The notes: generated from the sequence alone by a model not told the origin. DNA of 63,636 nucleotides, filler included, from Collodictyon triciliatum (GCA_043381765.1; 8 parts of 8 records of this genome joined end to end with filler, not necessarily neighbours in it); one strand, 5' to 3'. Counted from the whole stretch's first letter, positions 51,111-55,671 are shown. Program-made: numbers and translations.

Positions 51111-54100
51111 GCAAATATGTTAGCATTTTATTACCTTAAATTTGAAATTAATATTTACCTGACTTTGATGCTTCCGAAAAATACATGTAGCAGATGAATA
51201 AAAGAAAACCGATGAATCCAAGAATTAAAGTTGAATTAATAGTTCCTTCATCGCATTCAACACACGACCTCCCTTGGTTATCATATCCATCCTTACATTT
51301 CGAGCACGCATGACCCTCATAGCCATCCTTACAAAAATTACTAATTTCGATGGTTACATTCGATTTTGAAATTTTGTTTGGAATGACAGTGTAACAAGAT
51401 TCTGGTCGAGGACAAACAAGAATAGATTTAACTGAAATAACATTTGGCGAGGCGTGACAAAGTTTTAAAGATATCCCATCGAGACATTGGCATTCTCTGG
51501 GGCACTGGATACAGTTGTTTCTAAATCCAAAATACCCTGGCAAGCATTTGCATAATTCATAATCATAGTAATTTGGGTTTAAATTAACCTTCAAATCAAT
51601 CAGACCTGCTTTTGATACGATTGACGGACAAAAGTAAAGTTTTGATTCATCTTCCAAACTGAAAGGAGTTGTGTAGTTCATAAAATCAGGAAGGAAATTC
51701 GCTATCCCATGATTCATAGACGTGTCATTCAAGTCCAAATACTCGAGTTTGGAGAACCCGTTATATGATTCCGGAATGCTTCCAACAATCGGATTTCCAG
51801 ATAGCTCAAGATTGATCCACTTTAACGGATTGGTAAGCTCATCTAGCTTAGTAATGTTATTGTTTTTTAAACTCAACGTTTTCAGATTTAAGACAAAATT
51901 GAATATTCTCCAATTCAATTCCCCATAGAGTTTATTGTCATCAAGCAAAAGAGTTTCATAAAAGTAATCGTAGCTCCCAGAGGTGGATATGATAAAGACA
52001 CCAACCAGTCCATAAAATGTATTGTTTCTTAAATCGATCGTAATGAGATTTGGCAAATTCCAAAACAAGGTTGGCATACTTCCAGAAAATTTATTATGAG
52101 ACAATGTGAGTGATTTTAAATCATATAGGTATTGAAAATAATCAGGAATGAAGCCATTCATTTTATTCCAAGATAAATCGATGTATTGAATCGATGATAT
52201 ACTCCAATCATCAGGTATGGATCCAACTATCTGATTTTCGCTGACATCTAATTTTCTTAATTTGGGCAGTTGAAAAGAAGGCAAAGAGCCTGTTAAGTTG
52301 TTTCTGAATAACACCATTTCTTCGAGAATGTTACAGTTGCCGAAATTTGGTACAAATCCTTCGATTTGGTTATCAAAAATGGAAAAATATTTGATGTTCT
52401 TCACATTTGTAAAGTTTGGAATTGTTCCTGTATTCGAACATTAGAATCATTGAAATGAAAATATAAGAGTTTTTTTTTTCATTACCAGTCAATTGATTGC
52501 TGTCCAGATATATCCACTCAACGTCACTGATATAGTTGAAGTTTGGAATAGTACCTAATAAGTCAAGTGAATGTCAATGGATTCACATAGAAAATGCTAT
52601 GAATGGTTTTTAAGATATATTCATTAAATAATATAGACAACTAGTTTCTTCCAAACAAGACAAAAATAAGGTGGATATCCAAAAAAAAAAAACATGCCCG
52701 TAAGTTGATTGTTTCCAAGAATAATTCTTTCTATTTTTGGAATCATATCAAAATCTGTGATTGTTCCTATATCAAAACATCAGTAATACTACGCGGAAAA
52801 AGTGAGACGATACATTACTTACCATACAACTGGTTATTGCTTAGAAAAATCCATTTTACATTCGGAATGCCTCTGAAGTTGGGTATTGTTCCTATGAATC
52901 ATGTGAGAATAGAATATTTCCAATGACATTTAAAGAAAAATTAACTCACCAGTCAAATTGTTATTGGATATATCAATTTCTTTGACTTTGCCAATATTAT
53001 TGAAGTTCGGAATCGTGCCTATTTCAAAACTTAGTAAATGATTAAATCTAGTTAATTGAGTAGTAAATATCACCGTCAAGTTGGTTGCTATGAAGATAAA
53101 CCAATATAACGTTCGGGATATTGCTGAAATTTGGTGTTGTTCCTAGATTTCAAAGTTAGTCATTTATTCTTTGTTTGCTTGTTTTTTTAGAGAAAAAAAA
53201 ACAACCTGTCAATTGGTTGTTTCGGAAGTATATTTTTTCCACGAGTGAAATATTTCTAAAATTTGGTATGGTTCCTGTAAACATAATATAAAAAATTAGT
53301 ATCGCTTTACATAGTAAATAAAGGGCTAGGCGAGCCCAAAAATAAAGCCAAAATAATTAACCGGTCAATTGGTTGTTTGCAAATCGAAGTTCTCTAACAA
53401 TAAATGTATTTTGGAAGTCCGGGATGGTTCCTGTAAATAAATAATGGAAAATGTAGGTAAAAAATACAAACCGACGGTTAATATCATTAAAAAAAAAAAA
53501 AGGACTCACCACTCAGTTGATTATTACCAACAGTTATCACCTCTATAATCGGAGTGCAATTGAAATGAGGAATACTCCCTATAAGATTAGAAACGTCAGC
53601 TTATAGAAAAATATCTACATAAATAAATAAAATTAAACTTACCAGTAAGTTGGTTTCTGTGTATAACAATCCCTTTGATATTCAAAATACTGCTGAAGTT
53701 CGGAATCGTCTCTGTCATGATTTGTGAGTTAAATTATTTCATTTCATAATTAAATTTGATTTACCAGTAAGTTGATTGCTATGAAGAGCTATAAATTCAA
53801 CCATTGGGATACTTTGGAAGTTAGCAATCGTTCCTATCATTAAAAAAAAGAGTCAGATTTATTCAAATCTATTGATATAGACTCGGCATTACCATTCATA
53901 AGATTACTGGACAGATTGATGTCCTTGAGATTTGGGATACTTCTGAAATCTGGTATTTCCCCTATAATAATATCGTCTTTGAGATTCATATGTCTATTTT
54001 TTAAAGAAGGAAAATGAAAAATACCATTAAGTCGGTTATTTGAGAAATTAATCTTCTCTGCATTCGGTATATTGAAAAAGTTTGGTATTCCTCCTGTTAC

Positions 54101-54224
54101 AATTGCGAAAATTAGTTTGAATGACATTATAATTTATCGTGTATGAAAAACTACCCGTCAGTAAGTTGTTGGATACATCAATCTTTTTGACCATATTCAT
54201 GCCACTGAAGTTTGGAGCCGTTCC

Positions 54225-54289
<65 letters not shown>

Positions 54290-55671
54290 CCCAACAATCA
54301 TTCAGAGCATATAATTTAACAAATTACCAGAAATTTGGTTACTAGAAAAATCAATCTCCTGAATCATCACTATGCCACTAAAGTTTGGAATATTTCCTAT
54401 GAAATGGAGGAATTTGTAAGTGTTATCGAACCTACGTGTTCTGTGCCTTCAAAAAATAAACCTATAATTTTGCAATCACTCAAAATAAGTATTCTTAAAT
54501 TTGGTAATCCTGAAAAATCCGGCAGTAATCCTAAAATTTGATTATACTTTTGTAAGTTTCAAATGTTGCTAGTTAGGTGAAGCATATCATTTGAAAAAAA
54601 AACCTGAGAGTTTTTCATTTGAACCAAGAATCAAAGTTGTTAATGATGATATCCCTGAGAAATCAGGAATAGTTCCAGTTAGCGGGTTCTTGTTTGCTTG
54701 TAATGTCAGAATGTTTGGAATTCGTTGAAAGTCTGGTATTGTCCCAGTTACTTGATTTCCGTGGAGATGTAGATGCATGAGATTCGAAAGATTGAAATTC
54801 GGAAGGTCTCCATGTAATGAATTTGATCTCAAATCAATGTTCTTTAAGTATGGAAATTGTTCGATAATTGTTGTTGCAGCTTCAATATCCCCTCGAGCGT
54901 TGTTATTTGGGATGAGAATTCCTACCACTGGGCACGTGTTTTTCTAATATCATATATTAAAATTACTTTTTAAAAGTTTTCCAAAGTATTTAAAAAAATT
55001 GAGAACTTACCATGTAATCCTCATCAACACAAAATTCATCACAACTTATTCCGTACCATTCACAAATAGGAATATTCTCATTCATCCATCCAGTATTCTT
55101 TACCCAATTATCACCCTCTAGCAAATCGTAAAGTTGAATTAAAAGCTCATATTGATCTGCAATAGTTTCTCGCATTTTAATGTGTTTCTCATCCTTAAAG
55201 TAATTTCTAATTTTTTCAGTTCCTTGGTTATCAGAGGAATAATCCATCCCATTTATGTTAGCACTATCGCTACTTTCCTCTTCATAGTAGTAACATCGAT
55301 AAGAATCATAATAACTACACGTCAATTCTTCAAGAGAATGACCTGAATTCTTCTTGCAATCTTCGGCTATCGTAATATGACAAGTTTCATCGTAATATTT
55401 TAGCAGAATTTGGAATGCATCTTCCATTTTCATAGATAACAACTCTTCTTTTGTGTATTCGCAGCTCGTCCTGAAATGATAAAGTGTTTGTTATCGGTCT
55501 CTAAATATTGTATTAAAGAATTTTAATTCTAACCTTTTAGACGCCTGGAATGATATGGATGATGTTACAAAAGATGCAAATGCAAAAATTAGAAGAAGTA
55601 GCTTCGGATTACTAGAGAGAAAAATTTTTATATAAGATGATAGAGAAAAATATGGTGGGATATCTTTCCAT
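49723..55671 (-). CDS. LRR / Cys-rich / multi-TM (7TM-like) surface receptor
   Basis: Signal peptide, an LRRNT cap (L..LY....GDNW...TGW....ICEWYGISC), about 28 plant-type LRRs (LxxNxLTGxIPxF), Cys-rich CxCxxGY repeats, then about 7 TM segments with PWIQC, RYGFLYLPYK, YWEFVIIVRR and PYKSKIENQME. Confidence 0.9.

Follow-up and report, generated by a model that had tools for sequence, protein, structure and literature searches.

A leucine-rich repeat surface receptor gene of a protist with fifteen frame-neutral one-repeat exons, probably generated by tandem exon duplication

We have analyzed a 63,636-nt stretch of DNA from Collodictyon triciliatum (GCA_043381765.1), termed the window here, that carries on its minus strand a gene for a large leucine-rich repeat (LRR) receptor. 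The center of the gene is an array of 15 successive exons (cassettes) lying between 52486 and 54530, each of exactly 69 nt and each encoding a single 23-aa LRR. We consider these to be, probably, tandem-duplicated one-repeat exons in a constitutively spliced, large surface receptor belonging to a lineage-specific protist family.

RESULTS

An array of fifteen one-repeat exons

An AG acceptor precedes every one of the 15 cassette exons, and a GT donor follows 14 of them. The remaining exon (52698-52766) has a GC donor (gcatgt), which is the sole choice there that keeps the frame. All 15 exons are of phase 1-1, the split codon taking one base from upstream and two from downstream, and this codon specifies glycine in 14 cases and glutamate (G/AG) at exon 53643-53711. 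Concatenated, the exons give an open frame of 15 x 23 aa. The initial annotation of this DNA had claimed 15 consecutive 69-nt, phase-1, one-LRR exons split nearly always at glycine, any of which could be skipped, duplicated or swapped without a frameshift. This layout is borne out, and the length and symmetric phase of the exons would allow their removal or addition in frame. The coordinates it gave are exact for 14 exons; the last lies at 52486-52554, not at 52487-52555. Fifteen exons of equal length and phase, each in register with one structural repeat, are far beyond chance. Along the minus strand they are as follows.

Cassette exon 1, 54462..54530, minus strand, 69 nt, phase 1-1, GLLPDFSGLPNLRILILSDCKII; the most divergent unit
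Cassette exon 2, 54328..54396, minus strand
Cassette exon 3, 54155..54223, minus strand; the upstream intron 54224-54327 contains a (TAA)21 microsatellite
Cassette exon 4, 54025..54093, minus strand
Cassette exon 5, 53893..53961, minus strand
Cassette exon 6, 53765..53833, minus strand
Cassette exon 7, 53643..53711, minus strand; split codon G/AG, Glu
Cassette exon 8, 53510..53578, minus strand
Cassette exon 9, 53362..53430, minus strand
Cassette exon 10, 53206..53274, minus strand
Cassette exon 11, 53074..53142, minus strand
Cassette exon 12, 52950..53018, minus strand
Cassette exon 13, 52823..52891, minus strand
Cassette exon 14, 52698..52766, minus strand; the next intron (GC-AG, 143 nt) exceeds all others of the array in length
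Cassette exon 15, 52486..52554, minus strand

The introns are 53-143 nt in length, with 12-35% G+C. The intron before the large exon that follows the array (acceptor at 52428, exon start at 52427) falls at the same position of the repeat as the cassette introns, so that 16 introns are positionally homologous. The LRRs on either side are in large unsplit exons, as had been proposed, with three to four repeats in exon 54604-54943 and about ten in exon 51159-52427.

The consensus of the cassettes is G-T-I-P-N-F-x-x-I-x-x-V-x-x-I-x-L-x-x-N-Q-L-T. The scaffold is near-invariant, with a position entropy of 0 bits at F6 and 0.35 bits at G1 and N20, and the highest entropy is found at the x positions of the IxLxx strand (3.14 bits at position 14 and 3.01 bits at position 16). 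A constant scaffold bearing hypervariable binding faces had been claimed, and the strand positions are indeed the most variable. However, a constant scaffold with variable strand residues is a generic property of LRR domains, and is not hypervariability by itself.

Two microsatellites lie in introns of this region (97-100% matches), the (TAA)21 tract at 54225-54288 in the second cassette intron, and (AATA)12 at 51062-51110 in the intron after the large exon. Small shares of the window occur in two runs of freshwater-metagenome DNA, from which a few contigs of 151-237 nt match it identically across three cassette exons with their intron edges, and there are diverged pieces in addition. A joint of low likeness from 52433 to 53504 in metagenome contigs, with a shorter side of 21 nt, was regarded as an artefact of repeats or paralogs.

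The complete gene

The gene runs from ~55534 to 49723 on the minus strand. In the encoded protein an N-terminal cap is followed by ~28 LRRs of the plant type, then by a Cys-rich stalk and a multi-pass membrane module. Outside the cassettes the model was built from open frames, sequence inspection and tblastn of relatives. The full 22-exon model comprises 1362 codons with no internal stop. The exons flanking the array are as follows.

Putative first coding exon, 55534..55709, minus strand; hydrophobic signal-peptide-like stretch, donor AG/gt at the end
N-terminal Cys-containing exon with LRRNT-like cap (CxWxGxxC), 55011..55470, minus strand; placed by Pfam, tblastn of D. rotans proteins and the family consensus
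Exon of the conserved N-terminal LRR block, unsplit (22-, 23- and 24-aa units), 54604..54943, minus strand; ends in phase 1
Large exon, 51159..52427, minus strand; C-terminal LRR block (23, 23, 22, 23, 24, 24, 29, 25, 22...), Cys-rich stalk and first membrane helix
Membrane-module exon (FHMQTLSIV...), 50701..50954, minus strand; 31% identity to P0161 (tblastn)
Membrane-module exon with Cys-containing outer loop and GFLYLPYK motif, 50307..50615, minus strand; 43-49% identity to four of five D. rotans proteins, 34% to P0023
Membrane-module exon (WEFVIIVRR...), 50123..50242, minus strand; 46-54% identity to four of five D. rotans proteins, 30% to P0023
Last exon, 49723..50022, minus strand; two membrane helices, short tail and stop codon TGA; 44-48% identity to four of five D. 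rotans proteins, 34% to P0023

The tandem LxxLxLxxN repeats are recognized by LRR profiles, as expected of the plant type. The large exon, which is in phase 1 at its start and end, matches LRR_8 (E = 5.4e-19), LRR_1 (E = 1.8e-18) and LRR_4 (E = 1.8e-17), and retains all of the family-invariant Cys, Asn and Pro positions. Matches to LRRNT_2 in exon 55011..55470 (E = 0.0014, 19.3 bits against a cut-off of 20.7) and to DUF7630 in the Cys-rich stalk (E = 8e-4, 20.0 bits against a cut-off of 27) fall below threshold. A ROC-COR GTPase or kinase domain of Pfam is absent from the window's exons and from the eight proteins scanned (six relatives from Diphylleia rotans and two LRR-only matches). By tblastn there is no LRR-coding DNA in the window outside 51151-54847, that is, neither a second LRR locus nor spare cassettes.

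The open frame of the putative first exon, ...KLLLLIFAFASFVTSSISFQASKR, contains no in-frame ATG. The two nearest ATGs (55740-55790, minus strand) are one base out of frame, behind runs of A8 and T7. This shortfall could be due to an error of homopolymer length in the draft, or to a 5' exon missed by the model. Just upstream of the gene there is a microsatellite of an 11-mer x 11 at 55966-56090 (97-100% matches).

A receptor family in Diphylleia rotans

A HMMER scan with the 430-aa large exon gave 61,791 matches at E <= 1e-3, nearly all through the LRRs alone; the giant top matches that were looked up are one bacterial protein, one plant protein and four metagenome entries. The best 150 of the 61,791 matches were examined for the membrane module. 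It is present in 17, each of them a D. rotans transcriptome protein (EukProt EP00002, e.g. P0003, P0155, P0158 and P0161), known from transcripts only. On clustering at 90% identity, D. rotans has at least 21 expressed paralog clusters of the receptor family. That the gene encodes an LRR receptor of a protist-type lineage, as had been proposed, is supported.

The large exon is 33-40% identical to the D. rotans proteins, and three membrane exons are 43-54% identical in four of the five proteins tested (30-34% for P0023). Against a hidden Markov model (HMM) of the family's membrane module the spliced window model scores E = 8.7e-113. The D. rotans proteins share the complete order of cap, N-terminal LRR block, 23-aa run, C-terminal LRR block, Cys-rich stalk and nine-helix module. 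They differ in being from another species or distant paralogs, in the number of central units, and in that some have extra N-terminal domains. No near-identical D. rotans transcript of the window's receptor was present among the relatives found.

Closer relatives are provided by two short metagenome open reading frames (ORFs), P0005 (51% identity) and P0011 (65%), that start and stop exactly at the borders of the window's large exon. A prokaryotic gene caller would be expected to give such ORFs if introns lay at the same places, and the intron positions flanking the large exon therefore appear to be conserved in these relatives. Besides these two ORFs, the searches yielded full-length relatives only as D. 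rotans paralog clusters. Two scans of JGI metagenome contigs, one with a single exon and one with an alignment, gave no genomic loci of relatives. A word-based protein search gave no match with the Cys-rich region, and with the membrane module of P0075 it gave only four close D. rotans paralogs. P0190, a 55-aa metagenome ORF listed in a D. rotans cluster, was unrelated on checking.

LRRNT_2 is found in six of 20 relatives (best E = 3.4e-7) and DUF7630 in 11 of 20 at E <= 10, with P0161 (30.7 bits) lying above the DUF7630 cut-off of 27. N-terminal to the LRRs, two of the 20 family members carry NIDO and one carries FG-GAP_2 (P0158 and relatives). It seems that in this family the stalk and membrane module stay constant and the heads of the ectodomain are swapped. 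We found no published description of this receptor family in the literature, and no paper on DUF7630; the family appears to be undescribed.

The cassettes correspond to the run of variable length

The LRRs of 16 proteins were tiled using a profile anchored on the LxxN motif. Every family member tiled has a common plan, in which an N-terminal block with spacings of 27/22/23/24 is followed by a run of 23-aa units and then a C-terminal block of 22/23/24/24/26-33/25/22. The central run comprises 12-21 spacings in the D. rotans paralogs, against 17 in the window, where the 15 cassettes and the first two units of the large exon make up the run and the unsplit exons carry the N and C blocks. In these tilings the frame-neutral exons thus fall on that part of the protein which has changed in length during evolution. 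That the cassettes correspond to the run of variable number argues more strongly than any other finding for growth through tandem duplication of an exon together with its intron.

The comparison of paralogs suggested in the initial annotation, made here with the D. rotans proteins, bears out a variable number of units but gives no colinear match of the arrays. When the central array of the window was compared with seven D. rotans arrays, no register stood out at the variable positions (0.10-0.25). In the C block, values on the anchored diagonal were 0.21-0.27 vs 0.11-0.12 off it in five of seven comparisons, and 0.17 vs 0.12 in one; in the comparison with P0159 the automatic anchor failed, with 0.09 on and 0.14 off the diagonal. 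At 35-40% identity the lack of array colinearity cannot separate independent expansion from divergence.

The cassettes are old

Modular assembly had been invoked for this gene, and describes correctly how it is built, but the modules show neither youth nor recent exchange. The mean nucleotide identity between cassettes is 0.545 (range 28-70%), and adjacent cassettes are no closer than others (mean 0.557). Over 91 cassette pairs, from which the first, atypical cassette was excluded, the proportion of synonymous differences (pS) is 0.83, which is beyond saturation, and that of non-synonymous differences (pN) is 0.35. By class of position, pN is 0.17 in the scaffold and, for x positions, 0.50 on the concave face and 0.44 elsewhere. 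The only similarity common to the cassette introns is homopolymer runs of T or A. Judged by this divergence the cassettes are ancient and stable. Nothing in the cassette identities, pS or the introns points to duplication, gene conversion or exchange of recent date in this gene; the dS below saturation and the recent duplicates that characterize young, exchangeable exons are absent from it. Since synonymous sites are saturated, dN/dS between cassettes is uninformative, and the proposed comparison of exposed with scaffold positions across the cassettes can provide no answer.

Isoforms and variants in the relatives

Trinity isoform pairs were compared from 23 D. rotans clusters (12 + 24 + 8 = 44 pairs). 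None of the 44 exhibits skipping of an LRR unit, taken as 22-24 aa or a multiple with matching flanks. The differences in length are terminal truncations or alternative ends, and internal gaps are of 1, 5 or 12 aa or lie in diverged fragment ends (checked by blastp). This is evidence, albeit weak, that cassettes are not often skipped in the relatives. In the cassette introns no common elements (docking or selector) like those of Dscam were found.

Among near-identical D. rotans variants, those variable sites that were unique and isolated were counted, clustered differences being dropped by a filter.

Concave x positions: 11 variable sites, 1633 examined
Other x positions: 1 variable site, 1311 examined
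Loop positions 7-11: 3 variable sites, 1722 examined
Scaffold positions: 1 variable site, 2943 examined
Non-LRR positions: 17 variable sites, 10765 examined

Comparison of concave positions (11/1633) with other x and loop positions (4/3033) gives an odds ratio of 5.1 (Fisher p = 0.004), at protein level and with no synonymous baseline. The numbers are small, and the signal stems from three D. rotans clusters (6, 4 and 1 sites). Unfiltered counts of pairs, which are non-independent, lie in the same direction (37/2203 vs 7/1762 and 21/2328). The variants hint at a receptor family under diversifying pressure, and say nothing on splicing. Recognition LRRs commonly vary on their concave face.

The membrane module

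AlphaFold2 models were made with 20-sequence alignments for P0075 (730 aa) and for the module alone (P0156, 320 aa). The mean predicted local distance difference test score (pLDDT) is 82.9 for P0075 and 82.3 for P0156, the latter with a predicted template-modelling score (pTM) of 0.78. The membrane region of the models is confident (pLDDT 85-96), and contains nine helices of at least 18 residues, including the helix after the stalk; in P0075 the nine long helices have pLDDT 85-93. With the LRR domain outside the cell, the loops that contain conserved Cys residues would face outward. The modelled LRR part of P0075 matches the ectodomains of plant LRR receptor kinases (Foldseek, MIK2 8wec_A, E = 6e-10).

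The module had been described as 7TM-like (seven-transmembrane), which neither the nine modelled helices nor the searches support. Foldseek with the module alone gave no match at E <= 0.001, the best rows being G-protein-coupled receptors (GPCRs) with E 0.35-1 and TM ~0.2, among them bitter-taste receptors at E 0.35 and TM 0.18-0.21. In VIA wide the best Z was 7.4, which is within the noise for helical bundles. Using phmmer against PDB sequences no relative of the module was found (a single match at E 0.8), hmmscan of the module alone (P0156) gave no Pfam family at E <= 10, and a Pfam scan of the window's membrane exons gave none. No 7tm_1-type Pfam family is present among the 20 family members.

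Two leads, weak and related, point toward PF06011 ('TRP'). This profile is sub-threshold in P0178 (11.7 bits vs 28.5), with module residues 650-803 aligned to profile positions 236-405, and it is seen in two of 20 family members at E ~0.1, below the gathering score. Among the language-model neighbors of the module, the two top clusters score 0.97 and 0.96 and have PF06011 on 25% and 12% of members, respectively (11 of 30 matches). The PF06011 family contains the yeast Flc proteins and S. pombe Pkd2, and Pkd2 is predicted to comprise an extracellular domain and nine membrane helices (bioRxiv 10.1101/2022.08.11.503631). Calcium permeability of Pkd2 under membrane stretch has been reported (PMC9727806). 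The features in common with PF06011 proteins are an extracellular N-terminal domain, nine membrane helices and a cytosolic tail, and a nine-helix membrane domain behind an extracellular domain is seen in the P0075 model. In contrast, the ectodomain of the window family is composed of LRRs and is not an Ig/ML-like lipid-binding domain, and the hmmscan score remains at the low value given above. We therefore take it to be a nine-helix module whose family is uncertain, possibly Flc/Pkd2-like, rather than a GPCR-type 7TM domain.

DISCUSSION

Interpretation and alternatives

In the interpretation that we favor, the receptor would have a signal peptide and N-terminal cap, followed by ~28 plant-type LRRs that form a long, curved solenoid binding a ligand, probably on its concave face. 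A disulfide-rich stalk would lead to the nine-helix module, which would relay the signal and might be a channel-type domain of PF06011 (Flc/Pkd2-like). In the distant past, repeated tandem duplication of a unit of one 69-nt phase-1/1 exon and its intron would have built up the array between two LRR blocks that were older and free of introns. Since this unit is frame-neutral, evolution could have added and removed copies, with the result that paralogs would differ in the number of central 23-aa repeats.

A number of points weigh against this. Constitutive splicing of the window gene is an assumption for this organism, and the isoform evidence is weak because it comes from another species and short-read assemblies, and because Trinity handles repeats poorly. 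The GC donor is a weak type that is sometimes linked to alternative splicing. The concave-face variants would fit a fast-evolving recognition receptor, and so keep some diversification plausible. The 5' end of the gene model is incomplete. Tandem exon duplication is the parsimonious reading, and is unproven because no similarity remains between the introns.

Alternative inclusion of the 15 frame-neutral exons would allow one gene to generate many receptors with different LRR sets. The precondition is present in 15 of 15 exons (69 nt, phase 1-1), there is one GC donor in the array, and such splicing has been reported for brown-algal ROCO genes (PMC11378527) and for human NLRP3 (PMC6642158). Yet many LRR genes with constitutive splicing have exons of this kind, the introns of the array are short, unrelated and without common elements, and an in-frame unit skip was seen in 0 of 44 D. 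rotans isoform pairs. We therefore regard combinatorial splicing as unlikely. A more specific form of it, in which optional cassettes would give a Diphylleia-like predatory flagellate a repertoire of LRR-set receptors from one gene on a Pkd2/Flc-like channel module, we consider very unlikely; if true, it would be a splicing-based recognition system independent of Dscam, the variable lymphocyte receptors (VLRs) and the brown-algal ROCOs. We regard it as unlikely, to the same degree as combinatorial splicing in general, that the cassettes are still being duplicated, lost and exchanged among paralogs or strains, by exon shuffling or birth-and-death in the style of the Ectocarpus LRR-ROCO genes. 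The variation in central unit number among D. rotans paralogs would be expected, as would variants on the concave face and the lack of colinear variable residues with seven D. rotans arrays when the C block is at about twice background in five of seven. That non-colinearity may simply stem from the overall divergence, however, and in this gene no pair of cassettes exceeds 70% nucleotide identity, no intron similarity is left and the window has no second LRR locus. Moreover pS is saturated, while the average dS is well below 2 in Ectocarpus, according to PMC3341825.

The introns themselves could have been gained in parallel, if the repeats once lay in a single exon and each proto-splice site was entered independently. 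The junction ...NQLT G/G... is indeed a conserved sequence in every repeat, and the introns have no common sequence. This would nevertheless need 16 independent insertions at one codon position, confined to the block of exact 23-aa repeats that varies in number, and the flanking LRRs with the same G-x-I-P junction are intron-free; we find this quite improbable. Finally the gene could be a pseudogene or the product of draft error, and the missing in-frame start codon, the GC donor, and the N runs and long homopolymers of the draft window might be read in this way. Against that, 1362 codons are open over 22 exons, the family-invariant Cys, Asn and Pro positions of the large exon are all kept, and the membrane module retains its highly significant score against the family HMM. 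Decay or mis-assembly is thus most improbable. We return to tandem duplication of one-repeat exons in a constitutively spliced receptor as the probable explanation.

Relation to known systems

Exon-modular LRR layouts are already known in brown algae, vertebrate NLRs, hormone receptors and plants. In the brown-algal LRR-ROCO genes there is one LRR per exon of constant length (72 nt), with positive selection on the concave face and splice variants, as described in two papers (Zambounis et al. 2012, PMC3341825; Teng et al. 2024, PMC11378527). The window gene shares with these the single LRR per exon of constant length and symmetric phase, and the variable concave residues. The brown-algal exons, however, are 72 nt and phase 2 (PMC11378527), young, with splice variants reported, and encode cytosolic proteins fused to a ROC-COR GTPase, whereas those of the window are 69 nt, phase 1 and saturated in a protein that is extracellular with a membrane module. 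Their origin is independent of the brown-algal LRR-ROCO exons.

Frame-preserving LRR exons of 69-87 bp are enriched in human NLRs and other LRR families, and exon skipping in NLRP3 has been shown experimentally to be functional, modularity being a precondition for splice variants (Hoss et al. 2019, PMC6642158); frame-preserving LRR exons are thus shared, in NLRs within cytosolic proteins with LRRs of the ribonuclease-inhibitor type. One-repeat in-phase exons also occur in the luteinizing hormone (LH) receptor, as cited in PMC11378527. The gonadotropin/LGR receptors resemble the window gene in having an LRR ectodomain of in-phase one-repeat exons, a hinge and a multi-pass membrane domain; the window gene lacks a 7tm signature, and nine helices are modelled. 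The LGR membrane domain is a rhodopsin-type 7TM, and the introns are in phase 2.

Plant LRR receptor kinases (MIK2, PSKR, RGFR1, FLS2 and BRI1) have the same LRR type and fold (Foldseek E 6e-10 to 1e-7 with the P0075 model), and an LRRNT_2-type cap would be a further common feature. The window family differs from them in a repeat of 23 aa, not 24, and is without a kinase or a single-pass membrane anchor. ERECTA-type plant genes have a layout of one-LRR frame-neutral exons. The features of Dscam and VLR systems, namely arrays of mutually exclusive exons with docking or selector elements, or banks of spare LRR cassettes next to an incomplete gene, are absent from the window.

The window layout thus adds an independent example and not a new principle, differing in its unit (69 nt), its phase (1) and its position on a barely sampled branch of eukaryotes. 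The receptor family is the more useful result, combining a long plant-type LRR ectodomain with a nine-helix module that has no Pfam family or solved fold. Should this module prove to be a channel of the Flc/Pkd2 type, members of the family would be channel receptors, gated or tuned by a ligand, in a predatory protist.

The remainder of the window

Runs of N at 49296-49400, ~9800 and 62345-62400 enclose the linker TTAATTAATTAA, and a C-run is joined to a T-run beside one of them. The window looks like separately assembled contigs that have been joined artificially, in which case the receptor contig would be only ~49400-62345, and synteny across the N runs is untrustworthy.

A multi-exon gene for UDP-glucose:glycoprotein glucosyltransferase (UGGT) lies at 30000-38500 on the minus strand (Glyco_transf_24 E 4e-19, with Thioredoxin_14 and Thioredoxin_12); a word-based search with one of its exons gave no relative. 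An open frame at 16975-17733 (minus strand) with zf-RVT (E 3e-7) is a fragment of a non-LTR retroelement. Another open frame, of 549 aa at 3456-5105 (minus strand), is rich in hydrophobic segments and matches no Pfam family; it represents an uncharacterized multi-pass membrane protein. Long homopolymers are frequent across the window, and simple repeats include (ATTGTGTG)38 at 59265-59572 (97-100% matches) and (TTA)333 at 62397-63385 (95% matches).

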